Source of the DNA: Treponema sp.
GTDB taxonomy: Bacteria > Spirochaetota > Spirochaetia > Treponematales > Breznakiellaceae
Reading direction: 5' to 3'
Assembly: GCA_031256035.1 (NCBI GenBank)
Contig: JAIRRJ010000038.1
Coordinates: 13,059-37,058 of the forward strand
DNA length: 24,000 nucleotides
Shown piece by piece: positions 995-23,659 of the stretch. Within the stretch, counting starts at the first letter, position 1. The number at the start of each line of letters is the position of its first letter. Position numbers and translations under genes: made by a program. The notes under the pieces are model-generated. The model was given only the letters and a program-made list of their open reading frames with translations, had not been told where the DNA came from and ran no database searches.

Positions 995-1054
995 CTCAGC
1001 TTCACCTTCCCCAAATTTTCAAGGATGGTTTTGTTCAATACACATTCCCTCCAC

Positions 1055-2089: not shown

Positions 2090-3630
2090 ACAAGTTTCAC
2101 CTTCTTGAGATTTTCAAGAATGGCCTTGTTCAATTTCTCCTCTTCTTTTAACTGAGCCTCAAATTCCGCCCTTAAACCGGAAAACCGTTCGTTAAAATCG
2201 AAGTCGTCTTCTTCATCGGGAAGCCCCACATACCGCCCTGGCGTAAGCACATAATCCAGTTCCTTCACCCGATCAATATGCACAGAAGCGCAAAAGCCTT
2301 TTATATCCGCATATTTGCCTTTGGTCTTGCGCCATTCGTGATAGGTTCCGGCTATTTTCTGAATGTCATCGCTTGAGAGCTCCCTCGTTCTGCGGTTAAT
2401 CAAATGCCCTTCGTTTCTTGCGTCAATGAATAAAATCTCATCGGTGCGGTTACGGTAACCGCCGTTTGCTTTGTTACGCGATAAAAACCACAAACAGGCG
2501 GGTATCTGCGTATTCAAAAAGAGTTTTGCCGGAAGATTGATGATGCAATCGACAAGCCGCGCTTCGATTAACGCCTTGCGGATTTCACCTTCGCCGGAAC
2601 TTTTAGAGGTGAGAGAACCTTTTGCCAGTACAAAACCGGCTATACCGCCGGGGCTTAAATGATAGAGAAAGTGCTGAATCCACGCATAGTTCGCGTTTCC
2701 GGCAGGCGGTGCGCCGTATTTCCATCTGCCGTCTGTGCGGAGCAGATCACCCGACCAGTCGCTGTCGTTGAACGGGGGATTGGCGATGACAAAATCGGCT
2801 TTCAGGTCTTTGTGCGCGTTATTCAAAAACGAACCTTCATTGTTCCATTTGACCTGTGAGCTGTCGATGCCGCGAATGGCAAGGTTCATTTTTGCCAGCC
2901 GCCATGTTGTCTGGTTGCTTTCTTGTCCGTAGATAGAAATATCGTTGATTTTGCCCTTATGGTTAGAGACAAATTTTTCTGATTGCACAAACATTCCGCC
3001 GGAGCCGCAGCAGGGGTCAAATACGCGGCCTTTGTAAGGTTCGAGGATTTCTACAAGCAGTTCAACAACGCTTCGCGGCGTGTAGAACTGGCCTCCCTTT
3101 TTTCCTTCCGCAAGAGCGAACTCACCAAGAAAATACTCAAACACATGGCCGAGCACATCGGCGCTTCGGGCTTTCGCATCTCCAAGAGCAACATTTCCAA
3201 TAAGGTCGATTAATCCGCCAAGGTTTGCGGGGTCTAAGTTGCCCCGTGCGAATACTTTGGGCAACACATCTTTTAGTGAGGGATTGTCTTTTTCGATTGC
3301 GTCCATGGCATTGTCTACTTCTTTGCCGATGGTCGGCAATTTTGCCTTGGATTGCAGATATGACCAGCGGGCAATTCCGGGGACAAAAAATATATTTTCG
3401 GCTTTGTATTCGTCTTTGTCTTCGGGGTCAGCCCCAGCGTATTCGCCCTTTCCGTCTTTCAGTTTTGCGTGCAGGTCTTCAAAAGCGTCTGAAATGTATT
3501 TGAGGAATATCAGACCAAGGACGACATGTTTATATTCAGCTGCATCGATGTTTTTTCGCAGCTTATCGGCGGATTTCCAGAGTTGTTTTTCGATTGGTTC
3601 ATGAGTGTTGTTTTCTTTGATCTTTGCCAT
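2086..3630 (-). CDS. hsdM: Type I restriction-modification system, N6-adenine DNA methyltransferase subunit M
   Basis: A 514-aa ORF. The HsdM N-terminal domain is present ([35 protein letters not shown]), as are SAM motif I ([12 protein letters not shown]) and catalytic motif IV (VIANPPFN). Confidence 0.95.
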
Positions 3631-3641
3631 ATTGGGTTTCT

Positions 3642-3714
3642 AGCCAAGACGGGGAATCGAACCCCGGACCTGCACATTACGAGTGTGCCGCTCTGCCAAC
3701 TGAGCCATCTTGGC
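3642..3714 (-). tRNA. tRNA-Thr (anticodon CGU)
   Basis: The minus strand folds by hand into a cloverleaf: GCCAAGA TG GCTC AGTTGGCA GAGC G GCACA CTCGTAA TGTGC AGGTC CGGGG TTCGATT CCCCG TCTTGGC T. It has a 7-bp acceptor stem, a TTCGATT T-loop and anticodon loop CT-CGT-AA. CCA is not encoded. Confidence 0.9.
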
Positions 3715-3909
3715 TAAATCTAAGCGCCCCGTTAAGGGGCGTTGATCCCAAAAAATCCAAACAGCCCAGGCACCAGTGATGGTTGCCGTGACCAATTAAA
3801 GCAAGCCTGCCTTTAGGCAGGCGACAGTGCCGCTTCGAATAACGGCTTTAGTGGTTTCTGCAGGAAACCTCCGAACAGCACCGCGTTAGCGGTGTAGATC
3901 ACAAAAAGT
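3715..3909. other. Hairpin-dense, non-coding, GC-rich spacer; candidate structured RNA or stacked terminators, strand unresolved
   Basis: There are five clean short-loop hairpins: 3725-3741 (CGCCCC/GGGGCG), 3769-3787 (bulged), 3805-3822 (GCCTGCC/GGCAGGC), 3853-3869 (GGTTTC/GAAACC) and 3879-3894 (CACCGC/GCGGTG). A weak sixth lies at 3829-3846. No ORF is present. Confidence 0.3.
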
Positions 3910-4179
3910 TTACTCACGTTCTTTCAACGTTACTTTTACCGTATTATCTGGCTGTTTGCCGATTTTTGCCCTGATGTCCTTGCGAATTCCGATGATGTGG
4001 CAGGGAGTTCCCATTTTTACAACGCTGCCATCGTAAGGTTCATTGTCGAAAGTTGCATGTACTTTTACACGGCCTTTTCCGAACTCCGCTTTAACATCGA
4101 AAGGAATTTCGACATAAGCGCCGTCAATGTCCGGCACTTTTTTAATCTCCGCTTCAAAAGTATATATTTTTTTGTTCAT
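3910..4179 (-). CDS. DUF1905 domain protein
   Basis: An 89-aa ORF. The pattern YVEIPFDV...[25 protein letters not shown] is typical of DUF1905 (YdeI N-terminal-like) from memory. Confidence 0.65.
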
Positions 4180-4215
4180 AATGCCAACTGAACCATTTTC
4201 AAAAAGGCTTTCATT

Positions 4216-5565
4216 CTAAAAAAACAATTCCACTGCGCCCCTTGACCTTATCTGCAGCAGTGTTACAGAACCGGGACCAAATACTGCTTCAATGTGTGTC
4301 CGGTAAGCGTCCATTGCATCCAGTGGGATGTAGACCTGAATAGTGCCGGCAAAACCGCCGCCGTGAACTCTGCATGCGCCGTGTATTTTTTGCTTTTTGA
4401 AAAAACCCTTGCTCAACGCCAATGCAATACTGATACCCTGTTCTTCGGGGCGAGAATAAACGTTTTGCAGTAATTCCCAGGAAGAGTCTCCGGATTCGTT
4501 GACCAGTTCCAGGTAACGGTACAATGCTTGCTGTTTTGCGGCGATTGTTACAGCGCCGTCCATTTCGCTTAGAGCCGCAGACATGGCGTCCACCCGCGCG
4601 TTTTCTTCAAAAAAATGAAGAGAGCGCAGCAAAGCTCTGTCCCCAAGTTTTTTTCGTATTTCTCTGGCACGGGACAAAACATTTTCCTTTTCCAGTTCCC
4701 CAAGTACGGATTTGCCCAAAAAAGCCGCCACCCCTTTCATTTCCGCCGGAATTGACGCGTAATCTGCGGTCAAATCGGCGTGACTGCCGCCTGTGTTCAC
4801 CACGCAGAGGGCGAAACCGGCGGCGGCAAGATCGAAATTGATCTGTTTTACTGACGGGCGAGCGGCATCGGCAAAATCGACGGCAACAGCGCCGCCTGTG
4901 GCGCAGGCTATCTGATCCATAAGACCGCATGGTTTTCCAAAATATGTATTTTCGGCAATCTGACCGATTTGCGCGATTTCCAGGGGACAGAGCTGTCCTT
5001 CACCGTACAAAGAATCAAAAATACGGCCAAAAAGCACTTCCACTGCCGCCGATGAAGAAAGCCCCGAACCCGGATGCACTGTTGAGATTGCATTGGCTGA
5101 AAACCCGCCCGTTATGCGGTTCAGCTCAGCGGCAATTCCCCTGACTAGAGCTTCGGTCATGCCTTCTTCTTCCGGTTTTGGCTGCAAGTCAGGTGCGCCG
5201 GAAGAATTTGTCAATTTCACTTTTACATCAGGATAACCGGCGGAACGAAAGAACACAGTATTGTCTTTTCGTTTCCGCACAATGGCGACATTATCCAATT
5301 GAATGGATGCCGCCAGAATTTTACCCCGGTTATGGTCGGTATGATTGCCGCCCAGTTCGGTTCTTCCAGGGGCGCTGAATACCCGAAGATTGCCGTCACA
5401 AAGTTCCGTTTCGGGAAAGCCGTCCGTCCCACTTTTCAGCATTTCCGTCACAAGCGCCCTGTAACGCAAACGGGCAGCCGCTGCTTCCTTCTTCCCGTAA
5501 AGCTCAGAAAAGATTTCCGTGCCGCTTTCTGAATCAATTTTTGTCAGAAGTTCATTTTCAGTCAT
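4216..5565 (-). CDS. Galactokinase-family GHMP kinase
   Basis: A 449-aa ORF. It carries the galactokinase signature region (FSAPGRTELGGNHTDHNRGKILAASI) and the GHMP ATP-binding motif (PGSGLSSSAAVEV). Confidence 0.75.
   Translation of the reverse strand: MTENELLTKIDSESGTEIFSELYGKKEAAAARLRYRALVTEMLKSGTDGFPETELCDGNLRVFSAPGRTELGGNHTDHNRGKILAASIQLDNVAIVRKRKDNTVFFRSAGYPDVKVKLTNSSGAPDLQPKPEEEGMTEALVRGIAAELNRITGGFSANAISTVHPGSGLSSSAAVEVLFGRIFDSLYGEGQLCPLEIAQIGQIAENTYFGKPCGLMDQIACATGGAVAVDFADAARPSVKQINFDLAAAGFALCVVNTGGSHADLTADYASIPAEMKGVAAFLGKSVLGELEKENVLSRAREIRKKLGDRALLRSLHFFEENARVDAMSAALSEMDGAVTIAAKQQALYRYLELVNESGDSSWELLQNVYSRPEEQGISIALALSKGFFKKQKIHGACRVHGGGFAGTIQVYIPLDAMDAYRTHIEAVFGPGSVTLLQIRSRGAVELFF
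4633..4644 (-). repeat. Iterated 12-mer GGGGACAGAGCT, exact copy
   Basis: The top strand reads AGCTCTGTCCCC. The copy lies inside the kinase CDS and encodes GDRA; it is preceded by TT as in intergenic copies. Confidence 0.9.
4983..4998 (+). repeat. Iterated 12-mer, exact copy, extended into a mini-palindrome
   Basis: GGGGACAGAGCT occupies 4983-4994. The following GTCC gives GGACAG-AG-CTGTCC (4985-4998). The copy is inside the kinase CDS and encodes QLCP on the sense strand. Confidence 0.9.
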
Positions 5566-5591
5566 AAAAACGCCTCTGTATTGTCAATTTC

Positions 5592-6173
5592 TCATCCGGC
5601 TTTCCGGTAGATCGAAAGGTAATCAATAAAAGATGCAATTGAAAAGATAACGGAAATAATGAAGATAATAATGGCGCCAGTTTTAAAATATGGGAAAAGA
5701 AACTCGAAAATTGCCAAGCGTTGAATGCTGACGGCGAGGAGGGCGGCTCCTCCGGCAATGATGTAGGTTACGGTTTTTATTTTTCCACCCAGCCGGGCGC
5801 CCAGGGCAATACCTTTTTTCAGCATCAAATTGCGGATAAAAAGGATGCTGAATTCGCGGTAAATGACCAACAAAAAGAGAAGCGCGGGAAAAATCCTGTC
5901 AATTACAAAACACAGGAAGCAGGTGATTTGCATGAGAGTATCGGCAAAGGGATCGAAGAGTTTGCCAAAATCGCTCACTTCGTTGTTTTTACGGGCGACT
6001 ATGCCGTCCAGCAAATCGGTTACCTGCGAGACGATAAAAATTAGCCAAAGGACAGGCACAGTCCAAGCTGCGCCGGCAAACAATGAGGGGAAAAAGCCGG
6101 GTAACAGATAGACGATAAAAAACACAGGAGCGAGGATTATCCTGGAAAAAGTCAGCTTATTTGCTAGGCTCAT
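5592..6173 (-). CDS. pgsA: CDP-alcohol phosphatidyltransferase (phosphatidylglycerophosphate synthase-like)
   Basis: A 193-aa polytopic ORF. It has the CDP-alcohol phosphatidyltransferase motif D-x2-DG-x2-AR...G-x3-D-x3-D (TDLLDGIVARKNNEVSDFGKLFDPFADT). Confidence 0.8.
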   Translation of the reverse strand: MSLANKLTFSRIILAPVFFIVYLLPGFFPSLFAGAAWTVPVLWLIFIVSQVTDLLDGIVARKNNEVSDFGKLFDPFADTLMQITCFLCFVIDRIFPALLFLLVIYREFSILFIRNLMLKKGIALGARLGGKIKTVTYIIAGGAALLAVSIQRLAIFEFLFPYFKTGAIIIFIISVIFSIASFIDYLSIYRKAG

Positions 6174-6213
6174 GGTTAATTTTGACTTTTGGGTCTAAAT
6201 GTGTCAATTACTT

Positions 6214-6265
6214 GGGGACAGAGCTTGCGGCAGGAACGAATTGTTTTGGAATTGGGGACAGAGCT
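6214..6265 (+). repeat. Direct pair of the 12-mer (6214-6225 and 6254-6265), both exact
   Basis: cTTGGGGACAGAGCT, then 28 nt, then aTTGGGGACAGAGCTcaaaaaaaa. The pair lies in the pgsA/NUDIX divergent intergenic region with 40 bp start-to-start spacing. Confidence 0.92.
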
Positions 6266-6311
6266 CAAAAAAAATATGTACTAAAAAGCAATAAAACGTT
6301 ACTTTATTTCC

Positions 6312-6920
6312 ATGGACGAAAAAAAACTAATATGGATGGAAAAAGGGCGTAAACAGGTTCTTGATAACAAGGTATTCTCAGTATGGGAATCCTATTGTAT
6401 CCCGCCCAAATCTCACTCCGGCGGCTTGAAAACCTTTTCGATAATTGATGCCAAAGACTGGGCTATTGTTGTGCCGGTAATCAAAAACCCCAAAGGCAAA
6501 CAATTTGTCATGGTGTGGCAATGGCGGCATGGTTCGCGGAGCATGAGCCTGGAGTTTCCGGGGGGCGTTTTTGAACCCGAAGAAAATCCTGAGACGGCAG
6601 CAGTCAGGGAATTACAGGAAGAAACCGGCTACTTGCCGGGGAAAATTGAAAAAATCGGGGAATTCAGCCCCAATCCGGCAATTATGTCAAACAAGGTTCA
6701 TTTTTTTCTTGCTGAGGAACTTAGCGGAGCCGGTAAACAAAATCTGGATGAAGATGAATTTGTGGAAGTTGCTCTGGTTGATACCTCCGAGGTTATCCAA
6801 GGCATGGGGAAACCACCTTACGTCCACGCGCTTATGGGTACTGCTTTGGCTTTATATTGTTCAAGGATTGAGTTGTTCGAAAACATCGTACCAATTACAC
6901 AGTTTCCGAACAACTCATAA
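6312..6920 (+). CDS. NUDIX hydrolase (ADP-ribose pyrophosphatase-like)
   Basis: A 202-aa ORF with a Nudix box: GGVFEPEENPETAAVRELQEETGY. Confidence 0.8.
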   Translation: MDEKKLIWMEKGRKQVLDNKVFSVWESYCIPPKSHSGGLKTFSIIDAKDWAIVVPVIKNPKGKQFVMVWQWRHGSRSMSLEFPGGVFEPEENPETAAVRELQEETGYLPGKIEKIGEFSPNPAIMSNKVHFFLAEELSGAGKQNLDEDEFVEVALVDTSEVIQGMGKPPYVHALMGTALALYCSRIELFENIVPITQFPNNS

Positions 6921-6926
6921 TTATAT

Positions 6927-7703
6927 TTAAGGAGCCTTGTAGGTTCTATTTGGATCCCACATGCCTTGCCGGGCTTCGCCCTTTATGGAGGGAATATCCA
7001 ACACCATACCGGGTTCAATCAGATCGGGATTGTCCGGTTGGGGCATTTTTGATTTATTTGCTTCATATAGAGTTTTCCATTTCCACGCATCTCCGTAAAC
7101 CCATGGATAACCAGCGATATTCCACAAGCAATCCTTAGTTAATGCCCAAGGCCTGACAGTATACTGGCTTGGCAGAGCGTCTCCGGCTTGTCTTGGCGGG
7201 GCTCCGCTTTCGATATATGCCAGAATTTCAATGGATTTGGTTGCCGCAGTTATGGCCGCGTTCCAGTCCTCATCATAATAGGCGGCAATACTTGTTTCAT
7301 AATAAGCTTTACCTTCATCGTAGTCATTCGGATATTTGCTGGCGATATTGTTGGAATCCGCCATGTCCAAGTGTTGTTTTGCTGTGCTAATCAGTTGAGA
7401 GGCGACATACTCATCCGAAAGCTGTGCATAACGGATGGCTTCCTCAGCGAAACCGGCGGAAGCGTCATAATCGCCGTATTCATAGGTTTCCTGAGCCAAT
7501 TTTGCCAACCGCAGGCTTTCCAGATAGAATTCGTTGTTGCGAATTGACATTGAGGAATCATCTTCAGCGGCCCCCGCATAGTATGGCACAAAGTAGAATT
7601 GAGGCAGTTTTAATTCAGGTTCCGGAAGATTATCTCCGGCATAAAGTGACTGGACTGCAATTATTACGATAATTGACAGTATAAAGGAAATTTTTCGGTT
7701 CAT
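6927..7703 (-). CDS. Secreted protein with a C-terminal LysM-like peptidoglycan-binding domain
   Basis: A 258-aa ORF with an N-terminal signal peptide (ISFILSIIVIIAVQSLYA). The C-terminus is LysM-like: YTVRPWALTKDCLWNIAGY...LYEANK...LIEPGMVLDIPS. Its start overlaps the stop of the upstream gene at 7700-7703. Confidence 0.65.
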   Translation of the reverse strand: MNRKISFILSIIVIIAVQSLYAGDNLPEPELKLPQFYFVPYYAGAAEDDSSMSIRNNEFYLESLRLAKLAQETYEYGDYDASAGFAEEAIRYAQLSDEYVASQLISTAKQHLDMADSNNIASKYPNDYDEGKAYYETSIAAYYDEDWNAAITAATKSIEILAYIESGAPPRQAGDALPSQYTVRPWALTKDCLWNIAGYPWVYGDAWKWKTLYEANKSKMPQPDNPDLIEPGMVLDIPSIKGEARQGMWDPNRTYKAP

Positions 7704-8776
7704 CTTAAGTCTCCTTCTATTATTTTTTCAGCCTCCAAGGCTGCTCCATCGCTTTCTCCAATTTTGTCTGTGGCCATTTTTATTATTCCCAAAGCTCTTT
7801 GGCGTTTGTCCTCAGTTTCCTGTCCTGCAACCGCAAAAAGCGCTTCCGCTTCTGTGAAAAGAATGGCGGCATCTTCGTACCTTTCTTCACCTAATGTTTC
7901 TTCAGCCTGAGAGAATATGGCTTCGGCATCACGGTATATGTCGCGGACTGCAATATTCACTTTATTTGACAATGCCCGCTCCCTTTCGGATGAAGCGGTC
8001 TTTCGCCTGTCGCCTGCATAATTGGTCCAGCTATTTGACAATATCATGCTGTAGCGAAGCCCGGCTTCCTCGGCGCTGGCTTCAGCCGCTTTTTTATCTC
8101 CTGCTTCATATTTATCAAGTGCAATAACGGCAATATCATCCGCCTTGTCAAAATTTCCGGGATCATAAACATTAAAGCCCCGATCAATGACTTCCTGCCT
8201 TATCAAGTTAACTCTTGCGCCGACAAGCAGGGTTTTGTATTCATTAATCGCCGCCACGGCAGAATTTCTGGCTGCGTAATAATCTCCGGCTTCATATTGA
8301 TCCAGCGCTGTGAGGGCAATCTCATCCGCTTTTTCCAAATACTCAGGAAAAATACTTGTAAAACCGGAATAGATTAATTCATCTCTGACGGCCATTAATT
8401 CATCTTCTCTGGCCTGGGCATAAAGTTGAACCGTTTTCTTGACCAGCCCGTCGAATTCATCCGCTACAGTGTTAAACAAGGCCGCAGCCCTTTGAACTTC
8501 TTCCGCAGTCGATTTTGGCAGTATACTGGCAGCGCCGTACCGGGCATCAGTAACTTCCCAATCAGTGGGAAAATAGGCCGGACATTCAAAATCAATTGCC
8601 CGTTTTCGAGCTTCATCCGCCCGCGCTTTGGCATCATTTGCTGCATTTTGGGACACCGGCGTTATTCCGCTAAATTCCGGCGGTGTTTCCTCAGGGCTTG
8701 GGGCAGATTTACAGGAAACACCCATAAACACAAGCATTGCCAGTAACAGGAATGCAAAAACAATATTTTTTTTCAT
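7700..8776 (-). CDS. Probable lipoprotein with tandem helical repeats
   Basis: A 358-aa ORF. The signal peptide ends in Cys (LLLAMLVFMGVSC). Internal repeats are visible: EKADEIALTALDQYEAGDYYAARNSA, DKADDIAVIALDKYEAGDKKAAEASA and SQAEETLGEERYEDAAILFTEAEA. Confidence 0.6.
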   Translation of the reverse strand: MKKNIVFAFLLLAMLVFMGVSCKSAPSPEETPPEFSGITPVSQNAANDAKARADEARKRAIDFECPAYFPTDWEVTDARYGAASILPKSTAEEVQRAAALFNTVADEFDGLVKKTVQLYAQAREDELMAVRDELIYSGFTSIFPEYLEKADEIALTALDQYEAGDYYAARNSAVAAINEYKTLLVGARVNLIRQEVIDRGFNVYDPGNFDKADDIAVIALDKYEAGDKKAAEASAEEAGLRYSMILSNSWTNYAGDRRKTASSERERALSNKVNIAVRDIYRDAEAIFSQAEETLGEERYEDAAILFTEAEALFAVAGQETEDKRQRALGIIKMATDKIGESDGAALEAEKIIEGDLR

Positions 8777-8899
8777 AACCGCTCCTTATAGAAACTGGTA
8801 TTTCTGGTTCTTCGATTGAGTATACATCTGTTTGTACGATAATTACAAGCCTGATTTTTATGTTTTGGAAAAAAGCAAATAATTGAAAACCCGCCGCAA

Positions 8900-8943
8900 G
8901 GGGACAGAGCTAAAATGAAAATCAGCCACAAAGGGACAGAGCT
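8900..8943 (+). repeat. Direct pair of the 12-mer (8900-8911 exact; 8932-8943 AGGGACAGAGCT)
   Basis: Both copies are followed by A-runs (GCTaaaatg and GCTaaaaaac). Spacing is 32 bp. The pair lies in the divergent intergenic region between the lipoprotein and PC4-like genes. Confidence 0.9.
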
Positions 8944-9090
8944 AAAAAACCTATCAACAAAAACAAATCCAATCATGGTTTAGAACATACTTTTGAAATA
9001 ACAGCCTAAAATCCGCTCAGTAAAAATGTCTGAGGCAACTATTCCATGAATCGGCATTTTGGAATAGCCTCAATATATAGTGAGGTTTTT

Positions 9091-9324
9091 ATGGATGAAA
9101 TCAAATTTGACATTGTTAAGCATTTTGGGATTATTTCTTCGGAAAAGAGCGGCTGGAAAAAAGAACTGAATTTAGTATCGTGGAGCGGCAGAACCCCAAA
9201 ACTGGACATCAGGGACTGGGCGCCGGAGCATGCAAAAATGGGTAAGGGCGTTACCCTTACCGAGGGAGAAGCGGCTCAATTGGCGGAATTGCTGGTTTTT
9301 GCGCTTGCGAAGCAGGAAGGCTGA
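9091..9324 (+). CDS. PC4/YdbC-like ssDNA-binding family protein
   Basis: The track ORF starts at 9046. I prefer the ATG at 9091, which is preceded by GTGAGG. MDEIKFDIVKHFGIISSEKSGWKKELNLVSWSGRTPKLDIRDWAPEHAKMGKGVTLTEGEA matches the YdbC family from memory. Confidence 0.65.
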   Translation: MDEIKFDIVKHFGIISSEKSGWKKELNLVSWSGRTPKLDIRDWAPEHAKMGKGVTLTEGEAAQLAELLVFALAKQEG

Positions 9325-9350
9325 GTTTTTGGAAGGCTATAATTTGACTA

Positions 9351-9397
9351 AGCTCTGTCCCCAATTGCTAGATTTGGTAAATTTCAGCTCTGTCCCC
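9351..9397 (-). repeat. Direct pair of the 12-mer (9351-9362 and 9386-9397), both exact
   Basis: AGCTCTGTCCCCAATtg, then AGCTCTGTCCCCAATgt, with 35 bp spacing. The pair lies in the convergent gap between the PC4-like and oxidoreductase genes. Confidence 0.92.
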
Positions 9398-9412
9398 AAT
9401 GTGTTGTTTAGA

Positions 9413-10411
9413 TCAATACCTTTGAACCGTTTCCCATTTACCCGTTTCAGCGGATTTGAAAAGCGCGTCCAGTGCCGCCATATTAGCAATTGCATCTGAA
9501 ACAGGTGTCGGCATTTCGGTTTTTTGAATGACGCTTTCTGAAAAAGCGTCAAATTCCAGAAGGTATTGATCGGCGTTTTCCGTTTCAATCAGTCGCTGCC
9601 CCACACCGGTGGATACGGTAACCTTGCCCGGAATATCAGGGTACATATTAAAGGGGATCTCTATTGAAAGACTGCCGCCGGTCCCAATGGCGGTGACCCT
9701 CTGACATGGGTACATTTGGGTGCAAACGGTGAAAGTCGAAGCTCTGTCCCCGCCAAAATCAAGAATTCCTGATGCTAAGGCATCCGTCTTAAAAACTTGA
9801 TCTCTTACCAAAGTACATATTGCTCTGACAGGCTCACTCCCAAATAAAAACCGGGCACTTGAGACTGCATAGCAGCCAATGTCATAGATTGCTCCGCCTC
9901 CTGTATCAGTTTTGTTGCGTATATTGTTGGCATCTTTGTTCATGTATGAAAAATGGCAATTTACCGACATTAAGCCACCAATTTCGCCAACGCCTACAAT
10001 TTCTTTTGCCCTAATCCACTGAGGATGGAAACGGTACATAAAAGCCTCCATTAAGGGGACAGAGCTTTTCTGGCAATATGCGGCGGCTTCAACCGCTTCT
10101 GTAGCGTTTAAACATAGCGGTTTCTCACAAATTACTGGTTTTCCCGCATCAGCAGCCTTCTTTATGTATTCCAAATGAAGATGATTGGGCAGTGGGATAT
10201 AGACAAAATCCACATCAGTGTCGGCAAGCAGCGCCTCGTAAGAGCCGTAAATTTTCGAAAAATGTGAAGCTTTGGCAAATTCTTCAGCTTTTGCTTTATC
10301 TCTGGATGCAAGAGCATAAGGTTCCACCATTTTGGAAGATTTTAGAGGAGCGGCTATTCTCAACGCATAATGCCCGGAACAACCCAGAACGCCAAGCCGT
10401 AGTTTTTTCAT
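9413..10411 (-). CDS. Gfo/Idh/MocA-family NAD(P)-dependent oxidoreductase
   Basis: It has a Rossmann-type N-terminus (MKKLRLGVLGCSGHYA) and the EKP motif (VICEKPL). I chose the start at 10411, which has a GAGAGG RBS, rather than the longest ORF starting at 10459. Confidence 0.85.
   Translation of the reverse strand: MKKLRLGVLGCSGHYALRIAAPLKSSKMVEPYALASRDKAKAEEFAKASHFSKIYGSYEALLADTDVDFVYIPLPNHLHLEYIKKAADAGKPVICEKPLCLNATEAVEAAAYCQKSSVPLMEAFMYRFHPQWIRAKEIVGVGEIGGLMSVNCHFSYMNKDANNIRNKTDTGGGAIYDIGCYAVSSARFLFGSEPVRAICTLVRDQVFKTDALASGILDFGGDRASTFTVCTQMYPCQRVTAIGTGGSLSIEIPFNMYPDIPGKVTVSTGVGQRLIETENADQYLLEFDAFSESVIQKTEMPTPVSDAIANMAALDALFKSAETGKWETVQRY
9740..9751 (-). repeat. Iterated 12-mer, exact copy
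   Basis: Inside the oxidoreductase CDS; encodes GDRA in the sense frame. Confidence 0.9.
10055..10066 (+). repeat. Iterated 12-mer, exact copy
   Basis: Inside the oxidoreductase CDS; the sense strand reads AGC TCT GTC CCC = SSVP. Confidence 0.9.
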
Positions 10412-10491
10412 TTGTAACCTCTCATTGCATCGCGCGAACGATGTGATTTTACAGAACATCTCCGCAACGCGGGGAGACGAAAACTCCTTGA

Positions 10492-10566
10492 ATTTGGGGA
10501 CAGAGCTTAAAAATCTTACTTGAACATATCACAAAAAAGCAAAAAAATCGAGCTCTGTCCCCAAAT
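10492..10566. repeat. Inverted pair of the 12-mer with perfect 16-bp arms
   Basis: ATTTGGGGACAGAGCT (10492-10507), a 43-bp A-rich spacer, then AGCTCTGTCCCCAAAT (10551-10566). The pair lies in the oxidoreductase/groEL divergent region. Confidence 0.92.
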
Positions 10567-10653
10567 GTACCCTTTAAGGTTGGACATCACTTTTCCACCG
10601 GAAAACGCTTCCCCCTATTGCCGATTTTGCAGTAATTTAGTATTTTATATTAA

Positions 10654-12417
<1,764 letters not shown>

Positions 12418-12442
12418 GGACTAATAACGAATCGTAAGTCTT

Positions 12443-12476
12443 GAGAGGCTGCCTAAAAAGGCAGCCTCTTTTTTTA
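12443..12476 (+). terminator. Rho-independent terminator of groEL
   Basis: GAGAGGCTGCC-taaaaa-GGCAGCCTCT is followed by a TTTTTT run, 26 nt after the groEL stop. It overlaps the stop of the convergent transposase gene. Confidence 0.8.
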
Positions 12477-12983
12477 CCTTAATCCATGTTCAGGTAAATA
12501 TTCCAAGACTAAAGATTCCGGCGCATCAGTAATATCCGCTACCCCATGGTGATGATGCCATAATCCGCCAAATCTCCACATCCATGAACTATCAACCAGT
12601 TGCGCATAGACCGGATTTTCATCGATGTAGATAAATACCCGCAGAAAATCTACCATTCCAGCGATGATTCGAGAATAAAACCGCTCTCCCCATACATGAC
12701 CATTCATGTGATGCTTCCGATTCCAAGCCATTGCAAAAACACTGAGAATCCATTGCATAATTCGGGAAAGGGATTCATTGCTGCCCGGCTTAATCAGTAG
12801 ATGGAGATGGTTGTTCATAATGCAGAAATTCTTGATTTGAAAACGGTATTTCTTTTTTGCCCGCTTGATAACCGTTAACAAAAGCAATTTTTCTTCATCT
12901 GGTAATAAAATCATCTCACTGCGATTAATCCTGGCAGTCACATGATACTCTGCTCCGTCGCGGAGCATTCTTGGTAAACGCAT
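12474..12983 (-). CDS. IS200-like Y1 (HUH) transposase, RAYT-type, solitary copy
   Basis: A 169-aa ORF. It has an HUH motif (NNHLHLLI) and a C-terminal Tyr motif (FIYIDENPVYAQL). The N-terminal pattern RLPRM...YHVTARINR is typical of COG1943 REP-associated tyrosine transposases. No TnpB partner or IS ends are visible. Confidence 0.75.
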   Translation of the reverse strand: MRLPRMLRDGAEYHVTARINRSEMILLPDEEKLLLLTVIKRAKKKYRFQIKNFCIMNNHLHLLIKPGSNESLSRIMQWILSVFAMAWNRKHHMNGHVWGERFYSRIIAGMVDFLRVFIYIDENPVYAQLVDSSWMWRFGGLWHHHHGVADITDAPESLVLEYLPEHGLR

Positions 12984-13056
12984 ACTTATTATATGGTGCG
13001 CAGATGTATGGCACTTTAGTTTGGTGGATATTTTTTACTTTTTTCAAGCTTTTTTT

Positions 13057-13169
13057 AGCTCTGTCCCCCAATGTTTCGCAGCTTCTTTTTGCTCGATTGA
13101 AACCTTATCCGAACATGTATTGAAAATGGTCTGTCCAAGAAGGTATAATTGTTGCTTGGGGACAGAGCT
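13057..13169. repeat. Inverted pair of the 12-mer (13057-13068 and 13158-13169), both exact
   Basis: tttttttAGCTCTGTCCCCcaat ... gcTTGGGGACAGAGCTaaaaaag. The pair brackets the promoter of the 13208 gene. The left copy lies 74 bp upstream of the RAYT-type transposase start. Confidence 0.9.
13120..13149 (+). promoter_or_regulatory. Sigma70-like promoter for the 13208 gene
   Basis: TTGAAA (13120-13125), an 18-nt spacer, then TATAAT (13144-13149). The 12-mer copy at 13158-13169 would lie at about +1 to +14 of the transcript. Confidence 0.5.
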
Positions 13170-13207
13170 AAAAAAGCATCGAAATTCGTAAAAACTGGAG
13201 AAAAAAC

Positions 13208-13705
13208 ATGGAAAAATTAAATGTTGACAGTGCTTTTCCATTGACCAATATTCGTGGGATGAATGAATCCAGTGCAAAAAAGTATGTTCTTGGCTTTATT
13301 ACTACTTTAAAGTTAACCAATAAGCAGATTCAAGATATTGATAAAGATCTATCCAATTGGAATTCCAGGATTGAATTAGCAAAATATAAAGGATTACCTG
13401 ATTTGGTAATAGAAGCTGAAAAAGAAGTGGAGCTTTTGGAAAATAGGCGGCAGCAATTAGTCATGGAGACTGATGAATTCAAAATGCAAATTGAAGATAT
13501 GCTGCGGCAATTACCTCTGCTTCCGGCTTATGAGAGAAACATCGAGCCTGATATGCTTGAAAATGAACTCTTGATTGCTTCCGGTTATCTCCCCGGTGAG
13601 GAAGAAAAAGCTAAAAGTGAACGTTTATTCAGAAAAATGGAAAAAGAAATAACCGCTGAAGCTGCTCTTTCAGAGTTAAAGGCAAAAATGGAGAGAAAAG
13701 ATTGA
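13208..13705 (+). CDS. Hypothetical coiled-coil protein upstream of murJ
   Basis: A 165-aa ORF preceded by a GGAG RBS. It is charged and heptad-rich (EAEKEVELLENRRQQLVMETDEFKMQIEDML). I recognise no family. Confidence 0.55.
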   Translation: MEKLNVDSAFPLTNIRGMNESSAKKYVLGFITTLKLTNKQIQDIDKDLSNWNSRIELAKYKGLPDLVIEAEKEVELLENRRQQLVMETDEFKMQIEDMLRQLPLLPAYERNIEPDMLENELLIASGYLPGEEEKAKSERLFRKMEKEITAEAALSELKAKMERKD

Positions 13706-13722
13706 GCTCTGTCCCCACAGAG
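13705..13722 (-). repeat. Iterated 12-mer, exact copy, in hairpin context
   Basis: AGCTCTGTCCCC occupies 13705-13716 and overlaps the TGA stop of the upstream gene. The extension gives CTCTGT-CCCC-ACAGAG (13707-13722). Confidence 0.9.
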
Positions 13723-13770
13723 GATGCCAATCCTCAATCTGCTGCTTATTCCAGCCAGTCAGTAGATTCT

Positions 13771-15327
13771 ATGGTCCGTCATGGTTCAGCTCTGTCCCTC
13801 CTCACATTGACTTCTCGAATTCTTGGTTTATTTCGAGAAATGACCAAAGCGGCACTTCTCGGCACAAGCGCCCTGTCCGATGCCTTTTCTGTGGCCTTCA
13901 TGCTGCCTAACCTATTCCGCCGACTTTTTGCAGAAGGTTCTATCTCTGTTGCTTTCATTCCTACCTTCAAGGAATACTTGCTGGGAAACGATCGGGAAAA
14001 AACACGGGAGTTTTTATCCTGTATATTCACTTTTCTTACCTTTTTCGTAACTTTAATGGTCATGGCAGGGGTACTTGCGGCTCCGTTCATTGTCCGCTTT
14101 TTTGGCATGGAAGAATATGATGAAACCGTTCTTCTCACCAGGATCATGTTTCCTTTTCTAGGGTTCATCTCACTTGCGGCTTTGTTTCAGGGGGTACTAA
14201 ACAGCCTTCATGTTTTTACTCCATCCGGTCTTGCGCCAATTTTACTGAATATTGTTGTCATTCTCTGCGCTTATGGCTTGAGTCCTTTCACACAAAACCC
14301 TGCTCGAGCAATGGCTGTTGGAATAATCATTGGCGGTTTCCTTGAAGCAGCCATACAGTTTCCTTTTGTTATAAAACGGGGACAGAGCTTCTTTTTTACA
14401 GACTTAAAACGCGCAATCACCAACCCAGGTACAAGAAAAGTACTGCGCCTAATAAGCCCTACCATTATAGGGATGGCCGCTTATCAGCTAAACGACTTGG
14501 TTTCCACAGTATTGGCAGTCAGAGCTGGGGAGGGCGTTGTTTCAAGCATTCAGTATTCGCTACGTCTCCAAGAACTGCTCCTAGGCGTTTTTGCGGTTTC
14601 AATCGGAACCGTTCTGCTTCCTAGTCTTGCCGAATACGCAAAATCCTCTCAATGGGATATTTATAACAAGCGGTTGATTTCAGCAATAGACATCATCGCA
14701 CTCATTACCATTCCGATTACGTTTTTTTCGCTCGTTGAGGGACAGAGCTTAATCCGCCTACTCTTCCAAAACCGTAATTTCGACGAAACTTCAGTCAGCC
14801 TGACCCTCTCGGCTTTTACTTTTCATATGCCTGGTCTTTTTTTCATTGCTCTCAACCGTGTTCTGGCGCCAGCTTTTTATGCTCAAAGCGACACTAAATC
14901 CCCGACTTTGGCCGGTATAATCTCTTTCGTTGCCAATATTTGCCTTGCGGCTATTCTGGTTGGGCCGTTACGGGGCGCAGGCATTGCTTTAGCTCTGTCC
15001 CTCGCCAGCGCAGTAAATACGCTCCTGCTCCTCGTCTTCCTCAGGAGAAACCCCAATGTTGCTCTGGGGACAGAGCTTGGTTTGTCTATGGTTTACGTTT
15101 TGAAACTAATTTTTATTTCCGGATTGGCGGTTGTCCCTGTACGCTTCTTTTCTCCGTTACTACAGGTGTTTTTTGCAAGTAGAGGGCGAATCATCTCCCA
15201 TGGTATGCCTCTGGCAGTTAACGTAATTGTCTATAGCCTGTTTGGGTTTGCCATGCTTGCCCTAACCAGAGATAAAAACCTGTTTGCTCTGGTAAAAATG
15301 CTCAGGAAAAAGAGAAGGGATTCGTAA
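13771..15327 (+). CDS. murJ: Lipid II flippase MurJ
   Basis: The MurJ N-terminal signature is present (TLTSRILGLFREMTKAALLGTSALSDAFSVAFMLPNLFRRLFAEGSISVAFIP), in a polytopic protein of about 518 aa. The track ORF begins at TTG 13702. The ATG at 13771 gives a canonical-length N-terminus, so the start is uncertain. Confidence 0.88.
   Translation: MVRHGSALSLLTLTSRILGLFREMTKAALLGTSALSDAFSVAFMLPNLFRRLFAEGSISVAFIPTFKEYLLGNDREKTREFLSCIFTFLTFFVTLMVMAGVLAAPFIVRFFGMEEYDETVLLTRIMFPFLGFISLAALFQGVLNSLHVFTPSGLAPILLNIVVILCAYGLSPFTQNPARAMAVGIIIGGFLEAAIQFPFVIKRGQSFFFTDLKRAITNPGTRKVLRLISPTIIGMAAYQLNDLVSTVLAVRAGEGVVSSIQYSLRLQELLLGVFAVSIGTVLLPSLAEYAKSSQWDIYNKRLISAIDIIALITIPITFFSLVEGQSLIRLLFQNRNFDETSVSLTLSAFTFHMPGLFFIALNRVLAPAFYAQSDTKSPTLAGIISFVANICLAAILVGPLRGAGIALALSLASAVNTLLLLVFLRRNPNVALGTELGLSMVYVLKLIFISGLAVVPVRFFSPLLQVFFASRGRIISHGMPLAVNVIVYSLFGFAMLALTRDKNLFALVKMLRKKRRDS
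13788..13799 (-). repeat. Iterated 12-mer, one-mismatch copy (AGGGACAGAGCT variant)
   Basis: The top strand reads AGCTCTGTCCCT. Inside murJ; encodes ALSL. Confidence 0.8.
14378..14389 (+). repeat. Iterated 12-mer, exact copy
   Basis: Inside murJ; encodes R-GQS-F. Confidence 0.9.
14738..14749 (+). repeat. Iterated 12-mer, one-mismatch copy (AGGGACAGAGCT)
   Basis: Inside murJ; encodes E-GQS-L. Confidence 0.8.
14991..15002 (-). repeat. Iterated 12-mer, one-mismatch copy
   Basis: The top strand reads AGCTCTGTCCCT. Inside murJ; encodes ALSL. Confidence 0.8.
15061..15077 (+). repeat. Iterated 12-mer, exact copy (15066-15077), in hairpin context
   Basis: GCTCTG-GGGA-CAGAGC occupies 15061-15076. 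Inside murJ; encodes L-GTE-L. Confidence 0.9.
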
Positions 15328-15345
15328 GTTTTTATGTGCTAGTTT

Positions 15346-15357
15346 AGCTCTGTCCCC
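15346..15357 (-). repeat. Iterated 12-mer, exact copy
   Basis: The top strand reads AGCTCTGTCCCCc. It lies in the 45-bp convergent gap between murJ and cysK. Confidence 0.9.
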
Positions 15358-15372
15358 CACGCCACCCAAATT

Positions 15373-16344
15373 TCATTCATCCCACAGCCACGTAGATAAA
15401 TAACGTTCGCCCGTGTCAGGCAGAACCGCCACGATGGTCTTGCCGTTGTTTTCAGGTCGTTTAGCAACAGTCAGCGCAGCTTCGAGTGCTGAGCCGGAGG
15501 AAATGCCTGCAAGAATTCCTTCTTCTTTTGCAAGACGCCGCGCCGTGGTTCCGGCTTTAACTTTGTCAGTCTGGTATATCTCATCTACGACCCTGGAATC
15601 GTACACATTTGGTTGAAAGCCGGCGCCAATGCCTTGAATTTCGTGGGGTTTGCTCTGTCCCCCAGAATCAGCCTGAGTTTCGTGAGAACAGCTCTGTCCC
15701 TCCAAAAGCTGTCCCGAAAGCACTGAGGACAGAGCCGGTTCCACAGCAATCACCTTGACCGATGGTTTTCGGGATTTCAGGTATCTCCCTGCGCCAGTGA
15801 TAGTTCCGCCGGTGCCAACCCCGCAGACAAGAATGTCCACCTTTCCTTCGGTATCGCGCCATATTTCCGGCCCGGTGGTTTTTTCATGGATAGCTGGGTT
15901 GGCGGGGTTGTCGAACTGCCGGAGTACAACGGAATTGGGAATTGAAGCGGCTAGTTCATCGGCGCGGGCAATGGCCCCTTTCATACCTTCGGCACCGGGA
16001 GTCAGTTCCAGTTCAGCGCCCAGAGCTTTCAGAAGTTTTCGACGCTCAACACTCATCGTTTCCGGCATAGTCAGGATAATTCTGTACCCTTTAACTGCCG
16101 CGACACATGCCAGCCCGACACCGGTATTGCCGCTTGTAGGCTCAATAATAGCGGCCCCTTTTTTCAGCTTCCCTTCTTTTTCAGCCGCTTCAACCATCGC
16201 CAGAGCGACACGGTCTTTTACACTGTGAAGGGGGTTAAAACTCTCCAGTTTGACATATACGGCTGCCACACCGTCGTTGATTTTGTTGATTTTTACAAGG
16301 GGAGTATCACCGATAAGGTCGGTTATTTTTTCCGCTCTTGCCAT
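15373..16344 (-). CDS. cysK: Cysteine synthase A (O-acetylserine sulfhydrylase) with an atypically long loop
   Basis: A 323-aa ORF with CysK blocks: SVKDR (PLP Lys), [49 protein letters not shown] and GISSGSA. Confidence 0.93.
15651..15737. repeat. Cluster of four motif-derived units inside cysK
   Basis: The units are GCTCTGTCCCC (15652-15662), aGCTCTGTCCCt (15690-15701), a degenerate GCTGTCCC (15708-15715) and an inverted GGACAGAGC (15728-15736). The first two are exactly 39 bp apart. Confidence 0.88.
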
Positions 16345-16349
16345 ATTTT

Positions 16350-17636
16350 TTACTTTATAGCCTCGAAAGCCTGTTCCAAATCGTAAAGAATATCGTCAAT
16401 GTGCTCTGTCCCCACAGAAAGCCGGATCGTGTTGGGCTTGATTCCCGATTCAAGCAGTTCCTTTTCGCTTATCTGGGAATGAGTTGTTGAAGCGGGATGA
16501 ATCACCGTTGATTTAAGGTCGGCAAGATTAGACACAAGTGAAAAGAGCTTGAGCGCCTCCGAAAAACGCCTCGCCTTTTCAGCGCCGCCGGCGACATCAA
16601 ATGTAAAAACAGAACCCGCGCCGTTGGGGTAGTACCGCTTGTAGAGCTTATGATCGCGGTGTTCCGGCAGGGCTGGGTGGTTTACTTTTTCCGCCTGAGG
16701 ATGAGCCTTGAGGAAATCTACCGCCTTCAGGGCGTTACTGACGTGCCGCTCCATGCGAAGGGAGAGGGTTTCAATCCCCTGCAGGAAAAGAAAAGCGTTG
16801 AACGGGGACAGAGCTGCTCCGGTATCGCGCAGTATGACAGTCCGCGCCTTGATAATATACGCTAAGTTTTTCGCCGCTTCGGTAAAGACAATGCCGTGAT
16901 AGCTGGGGTTCGGCTTTGACAGGCCGGGAAACTTGTCGTTCTGCGTCCAGTCAAATTTGCCGCTGTCAACAATTACGCCGCCGATGGAATTACTGTTGCC
17001 GTTTATGAATTTGCTTGCCGAATGAGTAACAATGTCAGCGCCATAGTCGATGGGGGTCAACAGATAGGGTGTGGCGCAGGTATTGTCCACAATGAGGGGA
17101 ATACCGTGGCGGTGGGCAATGGCGGCAGCGGCTTCAATGTCGATGATGCTGCAATTGGGGTTACTCAGATTTTCAAAAAAAAGCGCCTTGGTGTTGGAGC
17201 GTACCTCTTTTTCAAAATTGGCAATGTCGCTGCCGTCAACAAAAGACACTTCAATGCCCATATCTTTGAATGTATTGGAAAAAAGATTGTAAGTGCCGCC
17301 GTATACCTGCCTGTCAGAAACAATATGATCGCCTGCGCGGGCGATGTTGAGAATTGAGTAGGCGGTAGCCGCCTGGCCGGACGCAAGGGCGAGAGCGGCG
17401 GCTCCTTTTTCCAGAGCGGCAATGCGCTTTTCAAACACATCCGAAGTAGGATTCATCAGCCGGGTGTAAATGTTTCCTGAGTCAGTCAGGGCGAACCTGT
17501 CAGCGGCGACTTTTGAATTGGGATACACAAAAGACGTAGTCTGATAAATGGGAACCGTCCGCGAACCGGTCGCCGGATCTGGTTCCTGCCCGGCATGAAC
17601 CTGCAATGTCTCGAATTTATAATCTCTCGCCGCCAT
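16350..17636 (-). CDS. metY: O-acetylhomoserine sulfhydrylase / aminocarboxypropyltransferase (PLP-dependent, Cys/Met metabolism family)
   Basis: A 428-aa ORF. Supporting blocks are [29 protein letters not shown], the PLP-Lys region [20 protein letters not shown] and the C-terminal [21 protein letters not shown]. It is followed 5 nt later by cysK, so the two likely form an operon. Confidence 0.9.
16402..16418 (-). repeat. Iterated 12-mer, one-mismatch copy (GGGGACAGAGCA), in hairpin context
   Basis: tGCTCTGTCCCC occupies 16402-16413. TCTGT-CCCC-ACAGA occupies 16405-16418. Inside metY; encodes V-GTE-H. Confidence 0.8.
16804..16815 (+). repeat. Iterated 12-mer, exact copy
   Basis: Inside metY; the sense strand encodes AALSP. 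Confidence 0.9.
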
Positions 17637-17737
17637 AAAATATCACCTCTGAACATCAGCTTGTTCCAAAATCTGATCTTTTGCAACTGCCTTTATTTAT
17701 GGCACGGAGATGGAAATTGCTTTAGTTTAGGTTTTTT

Positions 17738-17761
17738 AGCTCTGTCCTGGGGGACAGAGCT
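17738..17761. repeat. Head-to-head motif pair forming a perfect 10-bp-arm palindrome
   Basis: AGCTCTGTCC-TGGG-GGACAGAGCT, preceded by TTTTTT. It is intergenic, lying upstream of metY and downstream of the 17809 gene. Confidence 0.9.
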
Positions 17762-17808
17762 TGGCTGCGGAGTTGTTAACCAGTAATTTCTCTTGAGGAA
17801 AAAAACCA

Positions 17809-18213
17809 CTAGGTTTGAGGTATTTTATGTCCGTGATCTCTCTTTATGAAATGCAGCCTGCCGTTAAATAAAGACGGTAATACATTCTCCGTGTATATTT
17901 CAAGTTCTACTTTTTTGTTAATGCGTTCAATTTCCTTTGTATTTTCATTTTGTTTGACAGTGTACTCAATTACCACTTTTTTCCCGTCCACCGTGTATGA
18001 TCCCATGTAGGCATCCCAGTGCCTGTTTCCCCTGTTGATATTGGCGACATATTCCTGAAACAAAACCTTCCCATGGTCGTCAAACTCATAAATCTGATCC
18101 CCAGCCTCATCAATCCATAAACCAAGTATAATATGTCCTGCTCTGTCCACATTCTGGCTGTATCCGACAACCCCTATTACCAAAAAAAGAATAACTACCG
18201 CTAACTTCTTCAT
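17809..18213 (-). CDS. Small secreted hypothetical protein
   Basis: A 134-aa ORF with a signal peptide (MKKLAVVILFLVIGVVGYS). I recognise no family. Confidence 0.5.
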   Translation of the reverse strand: MKKLAVVILFLVIGVVGYSQNVDRAGHIILGLWIDEAGDQIYEFDDHGKVLFQEYVANINRGNRHWDAYMGSYTVDGKKVVIEYTVKQNENTKEIERINKKVELEIYTENVLPSLFNGRLHFIKRDHGHKIPQT

Positions 18214-18368
18214 AAAAACTCCCTAATAAAAGTGTTTTTGCCTTTCTTATTGACCGGCTTGGAGCTATTATATCACCTTTGGCGGGAGATGTCAATTTTA
18301 AAGAAACCGCTCTTCGCCAGTATTATCTTAACAGTTCCTTTTATGGTATATTTGGGTTAGATTTTACC

Positions 18369-19652: not shown

Positions 19653-19685
19653 TAACATGAATTTTGTATATCTTTAACATATTAT

Positions 19686-21404: not shown

Positions 21405-21418
21405 AAAAGTGCAGGCGT

Positions 21419-21883: not shown

Positions 21884-21983
21884 TAATTATAACCTTTACT
21901 TAGCATATACCGAGTTGACAAAAAAGTCATCCGTATTTTGTTAATCCTTGCCCCCGTCTGCCGGGTATGGTAAACTGTCTTGT

Positions 21984-23522: not shown

Positions 23523-23624
23523 CACCAGTAATGGTAATGAAAAATGCGGCATACTGCCGCCTGCCCCGCTGGGCTTATTAGCCGGGAAACTGTCGTGAAG
23601 ACTGGCAGCAATTTATGCGGTACA

Positions 23625-23653: not shown

Positions 23654-23659
23654 ATTAAC

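Follow-up and report, generated by a model that had tools for sequence, protein, structure and literature searches.

What keeps a word of 12 letters, GGGGACAGAGCT, in 19 exact copies within 13 kb of a Treponema genome, inside genes as well as between them? We address this question for 24,000 nucleotides of Treponema sp. (assembly GCA_031256035.1, contig JAIRRJ010000038.1, positions 13,059 to 37,058), a 24-kb stretch hereafter called the window. The word is probably the cognate DNA word of a RAYT/TIRYT-type HUH transposase, where RAYT stands for REP-associated tyrosine transposase and REP for repetitive extragenic palindromic sequence, encoded at 12474–12983, and its roughly 30 copies make up a local cloud. 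The word would play the part of a REP or of a terminal inverted repeat (TIR): copies flank the RAYT gene, an inverted pair stands upstream of that gene, and spacers hold tandem arrays. In the termite-gut Treponema lineage it appears to have spread, within 5–8 kb on each side of the RAYT gene, even into housekeeping genes: murJ, cysK, metY, a galK-like kinase gene and an oxidoreductase gene. Within the RAYT/REP–TIRtron kind, such a system would be new for Spirochaetota in being hairpin-free, in occupying essential genes and in forming a local cloud.

The exact copies, 11 on the plus strand and 8 on the minus strand between 4633 and 17761, were recounted as the initial annotation had given them, and 100 dinucleotide-preserving shuffles of the window all contained none. 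A two-mismatch search recovers the five copies of AGGGACAGAGCT, the two of GGGGACAGAGCA and the two degenerate copies at 15725 and 17738 that had been listed with their shared core, and adds one at 18139–18150, so that the range first stated holds for the exact copies and falls short of the outermost one. Mismatches to the 12-mer are confined to its first two and last positions, whereas the 9-mer core GGACAGAGC is invariant in all window copies and occurs 29 times against an expectation of 0.14. All 29 core copies lie within 4633–18150 and none in 1–4632 or 18151–24000, a copy-free outer 10.4 kb that was overlooked at first, as was the RAYT gene. When the copies are aligned with 40-nt flanks the conserved part is K-R-GGGACAGAGC-T, roughly K-R-GGGACAGAGCT, and the word can be defined more exactly as R-GGGACAGAGC-T. 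Intergenic copies share a longer consensus, TTG..TTGGGGACAGAGCT.AAAAA (up to about 26 nt), and the alignment bears out the A/T run described after them, in the form of a 3′ A-run. Most intergenic gaps longer than 40 bp do hold a copy, although on our map of open reading frames (ORFs) the count within 4633–17761 is seven of eight and not eight of nine. Sixteen of the 29 copies lie inside identified genes, nine sense and seven antisense and in all reading phases, and orientation is balanced within the 13 kb, again as proposed. An Rfam scan of the window at gathering thresholds matched a tRNA-Thr alone, and neither strand of the 12-mer was found in the relevant literature.

The RAYT gene offers an explanation for the word. 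Located at the centre of the copies, the ORF is on its profile matches a RAYT: it scores 85.6 bits on the NCBIfam model NF047646 REP_Tyr_transpos (cut-off 80) and 28.5 on the IS200 model (cut-off 55), Pfam Y1_Tnp matches with E = 5.9e-15, and its one relative in the PDB is Escherichia coli TnpA_REP (4er8). The HUH motif is H59-L-H61 and the catalytic motif Y119-IDE-NP, and H59, H61, Y119, N123 and P124 are invariant in the alignment of RAYT homologues (A1). NF047646, with 146 positions, covers residues 4–138, and Pfam detects no further domain. An inverted word pair (13032–13194) situated 74 bp upstream of the start resembles a TIR or a REPIN, and its folding energy in single-stranded form is −27.7 kcal/mol (z = −5.0). 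The RAYT was seen once per genome among the genomes sampled, and no relative of it was found in viral contigs. The other genes of the window are ordinary: a galK-like kinase gene, a pgsA-like gene, a NUDIX gene, two lipoprotein genes, a GFO/IDH/MocA oxidoreductase gene, groEL, murJ, cysK and metY.

Word and RAYT were found together from either starting point. Searching one genome per species with the 14-mer TTGGGGACAGAGCT mostly returned single chance matches, but the 120 matches listed also included nine Treponema or spirochaete loci from metagenome-assembled genomes with 2–7 copies of the 12-mer in at most 8 kb. Three of these nine loci, picked by the 14-mer alone, carry a RAYT homologue (47–72% identity), while another two share synteny with the surroundings of the window's RAYT. 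Conversely, among 80 metagenome loci selected by RAYT homology alone (51–87% RAYT identity, 35–69% GC), the core is present in 73. The typical arrangement, seen in about 20 related loci, is a −,+ word pair 50–200 bp upstream of the RAYT gene, and six loci of the closest clade (clade A) have an extra minus-strand copy 13–58 bp past the RAYT stop. In relatives a plus-strand copy stands 60–160 bp ahead of the gene. Clouds occur in at least three unrelated gene neighbourhoods and the RAYT is the sole gene family common to all of them; no other conserved partner gene was found across the clouds. Organism names attached to homologues of a GC-rich member are all spirochaetes. An assembly artefact was considered and rejected, as the same word stands beside RAYT homologues in more than 70 independent public contigs.

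The form of the word varies with the transposase. The clade of the window's RAYT (at least 75% identity) uses GGGACAGAGCT, a second termite-gut clade uses GGGACAGACC[CT] plus GGGACAGAGCA beside the gene, and a GC-rich clade uses GGGACAGAGCT with GGGACAGTGCT at some loci. The 3′ ends seen (...AGCT, ...AGCA, ...ACC[CT] and ...TGCT) co-vary with RAYT lineage. In the closest clade, about 13 one-mismatch variants of the core stand against 172 perfect or R1 copies. At six loci (L135, L144, L150, L161, L165 and L189) two dialects share a cloud, with GGGACAGAGCA immediately upstream of the RAYT gene and mostly GGGACAGACC[CT] elsewhere, which may reflect relaxed specificity at positions 9–12 or a second, unseen RAYT paralogue.

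Away from the gene the word thins out abruptly. Density was counted with the dialect-tolerant pattern GGACAG[AT][GC]C, expected by chance about 0.03 times per kb; the AGC core alone undercounts the middle clade, which uses ACC[CT]. Across 54 low-GC loci, the 7 kb on either side of the RAYT hold 1–3 copies per kb; past that distance there are 2 matches over 22 kb on the upstream side and 2 over 20 kb on the downstream side (about 0.1 per kb). GC-rich Spirochaetia on long contigs show no more than small clusters beside the RAYT: 20 kb of a 945-kb contig contain 3 copies, and another locus has 10 copies within 4.5 kb and none farther. The core is absent (0 copies) from 21-kb metY–cysK loci of related Treponema (MetY 78–80% identical), in which there is no RAYT, and the orthologous word sites differ there. 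Hence there is a strong, though not final, case that the word is a local cloud of about 14 kb around the RAYT and not a genome-wide word. Taken together, these comparisons of public sequences show linkage of word and RAYT across many species, co-variation of dialect with lineage, and local confinement.

Within the window, the copies (exact ones being GGGGACAGAGCT) and the features associated with them are the following.

4633–4644, minus strand: exact sense copy in the galK-like kinase gene, read as peptide GDRA; 1–4 mismatches in orthologues
4983–4994, plus strand: exact copy in the galK-like gene, antisense, specific to the window lineage; 5–7 mismatches in orthologues, flanks align, no indel
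6214–6225, plus strand: exact copy in the spacer between pgsA and nudix, first member of a direct pair with 40-bp spacing
6254–6265, plus strand: exact copy, intergenic, second of the direct pair with 6214
8900–8911, plus strand: exact copy, intergenic, first unit of a 32-bp tandem
8932–8943, plus strand: AGGGACAGAGCT copy, intergenic
9351–9362, minus strand: exact copy, intergenic, member of a direct pair with 35-bp spacing
9386–9397, minus strand: exact copy directly past the 3′ end of the oxidoreductase gene; kept in L023, one mismatch in L042
9740–9751, minus strand: exact copy in the GFO/IDH/MocA oxidoreductase gene, peptide GDRA; window-specific 12-nt replacement
10055–10066, plus strand: exact copy in the oxidoreductase gene, peptide SSVP; window-specific replacement
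10496–10507, plus strand: exact copy upstream of groEL, paired in inverted orientation with 10551
10551–10562, minus strand: exact copy upstream of groEL, second arm of the inverted pair with 10496
12474–12983, minus strand: RAYT gene, 169 aa, HUH/Y1 family, identified from NCBIfam, Pfam, PDB and alignment
13032–13194, no strand: inverted word pair with extended arms of 37 nt, 81% complementary, 89 nt apart
13057–13068, minus strand: exact copy in the sense orientation of the RAYT gene, 74 bp ahead of its start
13158–13169, plus strand: exact copy, completing the RAYT-proximal inverted pair with 13057
13705–13716, minus strand: exact copy at the junction of a hypothetical 165-aa gene and murJ, peptide SSVP; conserved in orthologues
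13788–13799, minus strand: AGGGACAGAGCT copy in murJ, peptide ALS; perfect in 9 orthologues
14378–14389, plus strand: exact copy in murJ, peptide GQS; 11-mer kept in 7 orthologues
14738–14749, plus strand: AGGGACAGAGCT copy in murJ; kept in 7 orthologues
14991–15002, minus strand: AGGGACAGAGCT copy in murJ; kept in 5 of 6 orthologues, absent in L127
15066–15077, plus strand: exact copy in murJ, peptide GTE; window-specific replacement
15346–15357, minus strand: exact copy, intergenic between murJ and cysK
15651–15662, minus strand: GGGGACAGAGCA copy in cysK, encoding the conserved GGQS
15664–15714, minus strand: 51-bp in-frame insertion (17 aa) in cysK, containing a word copy
15690–15701, minus strand: AGGGACAGAGCT copy within the cysK insertion
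15725–15736, plus strand: degenerate copy GAGGACAGAGCC inside cysK
16402–16413, minus strand: GGGGACAGAGCA copy in metY, peptide GTE; word absent at the orthologous site in L201 and L203
16804–16815, plus strand: exact copy in metY, antisense; at the orthologous site absent in L201, one mismatch in L203
17738–17749, minus strand: degenerate copy CAGGACAGAGCT, intergenic, abutting 17750 as a tight inverted pair
17750–17761, plus strand: exact copy, intergenic
18139–18150, minus strand: GTGGACAGAGCA with intact core, the outermost copy, in a DUF5640-like gene

Across the related loci, ORFs of 120 aa or longer account for 89% of the sequence and hold 62% of the copies. Four murJ copies are perfect in 5–9 orthologues at an overall nucleotide identity of 66–78%. 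When seven murJ genes are aligned by codon, identity is 96.8% in the word columns compared with 72.5% elsewhere, and at third codon positions 92.9% within the word and 46.3% outside (permutation p<5e-5); 11-nt windows of at least 99% identity occur at word sites alone in the whole gene. These alignments show the intragenic copies to be conserved at the DNA level beyond coding constraint, and the third codon positions bear out the initial proposal that a DNA word and not a peptide is being maintained.

Orthologues also bear on how copies come about. At the sites 4983, 9740, 10055 and 15066 the orthologues differ from the word at 5–9 of 12 positions, while the flanks align without indels; in the oxidoreductase, GGKT was replaced by GDRA. 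The ancestral sequence at the gained sites matches the word at about 6 of 12 positions, with 3 expected by chance. The copy at 4633, in turn, has orthologues in a graded series of 1–4 mismatches. The 17-aa insertion in CysK appears as a gap against the PDB structures 3zei and 2q3b, is absent from the CysK of related Treponema (307 aa) and sits in the loop before the conserved GGQxKPHxIQG (window 15635–15714). Part of it is a diverged 39-bp tandem duplication of adjacent coding sequence, bounded by word copies. Judging by these alignments, new copies arise as exact 12-nt in-place replacements or as small in-frame insertions. Spacers contain direct arrays of the word whose periods range over 17–40 bp, down to the 12-mer plus 7 nt, and close word pairs are direct in 254 cases and inverted in 54. 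Periods of 17–19 bp were seen in L130 (4101–4331), L126 (14029–14116) and L135 (3117–3240 and 12364–12444), where each unit is the word plus a 5–7-nt spacer and up to about 12 units follow each other, some of them degenerate.

HUH/Y1 enzymes work on single-stranded DNA, and transposases often prefer sites near their own gene. We propose that the word, when single-stranded, is bound and/or nicked by the RAYT, that the RAYT would act preferentially near its own gene, and that this action might turn partly matching sites into perfect copies by short-patch, template-directed conversion while continually re-homogenising those that exist. Four features would follow from local conversion of this kind: an all-or-none core, multi-nucleotide gains that leave length unchanged, arrays, and confinement in space. 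In its full form the proposal is that a domesticated HUH transposase in cis writes and re-homogenises a 12-nt word by length-preserving conversion, even in essential genes, and that the resulting heritable cloud, about 14 kb across, was retained while a Treponema clade diverged. This we offer as tentative and, for now, rather doubtful, in contrast to the assignment of the word to the RAYT, which we hold to be probable.

Several points weigh against one or both of these readings. Confinement is drawn from about 6–9 loci with flanks longer than 7 kb, and apart from several GC-rich contexts these come essentially from two syntenic groups. In a few GC-rich loci copies continue as far as 10 kb; in L177, L183 and L197 they reach the ends of 17–20 kb. 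The left copy-free flank of the window holds a tRNA-linked restriction–modification island, and for this reason the absence of copies there could partly reflect recent acquisition; the word-free metY relatives may be without the whole system. At the window's RAYT the copies stand on the 5′ side alone, the 3′ side having none because it abuts the groEL terminator. Binding, cutting or copying of the word by the RAYT is a proposal drawn from sequence, we know of no HUH/Y1 reaction that yields a length-preserving 12-nt replacement, and the conservation seen would equally result if each copy were under purifying selection and there were no conversion.

Purifying selection on RAYT-binding sites is accordingly the main alternative to conversion. 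It holds that the RAYT is domesticated and that its copies arose by stepwise point mutation, with no conversion or copying, and are kept by ordinary selection for a binding function that benefits the host, for example the handling of single-stranded DNA at forks. It draws on the linkage and conservation data used for the RAYT reading, the graded series at 4633 has the look of stepwise change, the ancestral match at gained sites lies above chance, and RAYTs are regarded as domesticated, vertically inherited genes (PMC5581495). However, the four gains each comprise 5–9 substitutions within exactly 12 nt with no intermediates among the sampled orthologues, one-mismatch variants of the core are scarce beside the perfect or R1 copies, and both the tandem arrays and the cysK insertion imply copying events. 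We therefore regard selection without conversion or copying as unlikely.

More unlikely still, we consider, is a HIP1- or Chi-like binding site for an abundant nucleoid, regulatory or repair protein of the host, a site kept for a host function in this chromosomal district, with the RAYT a bystander or minor user. DNA-level conservation in essential genes across about 25% nucleotide divergence speaks for such a site, as does the pair bracketing the groEL promoter region, kept in L042 where no RAYT is adjacent, and direct pairs at 30–40 bp spacing could suit cooperative binding. Against it, clouds in unrelated neighbourhoods have only the RAYT family in common, the dialects co-vary with it, and no candidate binding protein is encoded nearby. 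A polar word of the Chi or KOPS type was specifically rejected, because orientation within the 13 kb is balanced.

A genome-wide self-recognition signal was the analogy initially drawn, with the DNA uptake sequences (DUS) of Neisseria, the uptake signal sequences (USS) of Pasteurellaceae and cyanobacterial HIP1 as models. Under an uptake signal, biased uptake and recombination would enrich the word everywhere, genes included. The resemblance is real: DUS and USS are likewise short, asymmetric words that occur in either orientation, are tolerated in every reading frame and arise in place without change of gene length, with occasional inverted pairs in spacers, and the Treponema word is in addition conserved across species. 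DUS and USS, however, occur genome-wide at about 1 per kb, are tied to competence machinery and come with abundant one-off variants, and HIP1 is a palindromic octamer of high genome-wide frequency, whereas the Treponema word is non-palindromic, appears to lack such a genome-wide density and shows almost none of the one-mismatch core variants in the decay series expected from uptake drive. The outer 10.4 kb of the window are empty, density drops about 20-fold beyond 7 kb from the RAYT, and the 21-kb regions of related Treponema have no core; as far as these data reach, frequency outside the cloud is near expectation. Among the 120 matches listed for the 14-mer, Treponema genomes appear once each and Rhodoferax genomes 3–5 times. 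With the word tracking the RAYT gene and its dialect the RAYT lineage, we judge an uptake signal very improbable. Of the four roles first suggested, a minimal REP-type element came closest, and the uptake tag and HIP1-like word find no support.

Finally, an ordinary miniature inverted-repeat transposable element (MITE) or longer repeat with the 12-mer as its conserved core, which the up to 26-nt consensus of intergenic copies might suggest and which the initial annotation had already disfavoured, can practically be dismissed, since aligned flanks are unconserved past about 13 nt and intragenic copies replace exactly 12 nt in place with orthologous flanks intact.

As the probable cognate word of a RAYT, the element has its nearest relatives in two known systems. 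TIRtrons are RAYT-like genes without flanking hairpin REPs, whose terminal inverted repeats carry GGGGWSAS (Di Nocera et al. 2013, PMC3733652), and TIRtrons/TIRYTs have been discussed as roughly TnpA-Y1 subclass 2.1 (Quentin et al. 2018, PMC6006769); the term TIRYT was met in just two papers. The window fits in that GGGGACAG matches the GGGGWSAS motif, that an HUH/Y1 gene is flanked by non-hairpin inverted repeats at a fairly constant distance from the ORF, and that TIRtron repeat families, too, are moderately abundant and often in dimers or clusters. It differs in having a conserved unit of 11–13 nt, mostly intragenic copies and a dense cloud of about 7 kb on each side, and, with respect to subclass 2.1, in a short RAYT of 169 aa without the C-terminal helix–turn–helix extension. 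Neither study (PMC3733652, PMC6006769) lists spirochaetes or reports local clouds or in-place replacement.

With REP/REPIN–RAYT systems (Nunvar 2010; Bertels and Rainey 2011, PMC3116915; Ton-Hoang 2012; Messing 2012, PMC3479197) the Treponema word shares a transposase that NCBIfam classes as RAYT, a short cognate repeat that flanks the gene and co-evolves with it, and an upstream inverted pair that folds like a REPIN. REPs, on the other hand, are extragenic imperfect palindromes of 20–40 nt with a GTAG or CGTC tag and occur genome-wide in tens to hundreds of copies, mostly as inverted doublets. The Treponema consensus contains neither GTAG nor CGTC, only 6–9% of copies have a downstream complementary arm and 93% are without a hairpin partner, about 55–60% are intragenic, and the copies are local with close pairs mainly direct. 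The 14-mer TTGGGGACAGAGCT itself recurs identically in a REP of Comamonadaceae (Rhodoferax, Aalborgicola and others), where it makes up the 5′ arm of a genuine hairpin, cAGTTGGGGACAGAGCT-loop-(G)TCTGTCCCGCAA, with the 3′ arm present in 90% of copies; this hairpin form is absent from the RAYT loci. The Comamonadaceae REP (L003, L011, L014, L022, L055, L076, L084 and others) forms tandem arrays with a period of 41–60 bp on many contigs per genome, and no transposase for it was seen at the loci from the 14-mer scan. The cysK insertion recalls Rickettsia palindromic elements (RPEs) and intragenic REPs as repeat DNA that survives in frame inside genes, but RPEs are insertions of 100–150 bp and the intragenic copies here are mostly length-neutral 12-nt replacements.

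We know of no settled account of how RAYTs spread REPs and serve their hosts. This spirochaete clade is an unusually simple RAYT case, with an 11–12-nt word, no hairpin and lineage-tied dialects, and it offers dated gains and losses at orthologous sites together with a spatial gradient around the gene. If the tentative conversion model were true, the cloud would represent a localised, protein-directed sequence drive of a kind not described for REP/RAYT systems, a direct read-out of RAYT activity and a testable model for the birth of REPs, and a transposase-linked process would be rewriting synonymous and even non-synonymous sites of murJ, cysK and metY. Such clouds could pass for uptake signals or regulatory motifs in genome scans, and they coincide with rearrangement breakpoints and assembly-relevant tandem arrays.

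The remaining observations concern the surroundings of the copies. The inverted pair at 10496–10562 lies upstream of groEL with an A/T-rich stretch between its arms, which are separated by about 43 bp, and is kept in three species, namely the window, L023 (3688–3740) and L042 (5911–5973; no RAYT adjacent). The NUDIX gene and the two lipoprotein genes (6312–8776) and groEL (10774–12417) are copy-free although they lie inside the cloud, and their orthologues in L126 and L127 are likewise copy-free; some genes thus seem refractory. To the left, tRNA-Thr (CGT; 3641–3715, minus strand) borders a block at 1055–3630 with type I restriction–modification hsdM and a RhuM-like gene, which together with the tRNA is a typical tRNA-linked genomic island. 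This tRNA-Thr is 88–92% identical in L126, L127 and L146, with galK next to it there as in the window. The galK–pgsA block is joined to nudix in the window and to the murJ side in these three loci, and both rearrangement junctions are spacers with word copies (window 6174–6311; L126 3771–3830 and 12707–12790), which suggests recombination at or between copies. Between the RAYT gene and murJ lies a hypothetical gene of 165 aa (13208–13705, plus strand) that has no Pfam match and is conserved in L020 and L134 (53–55% identity); its stop overlaps the TTG start of murJ, and a word copy spans the junction.

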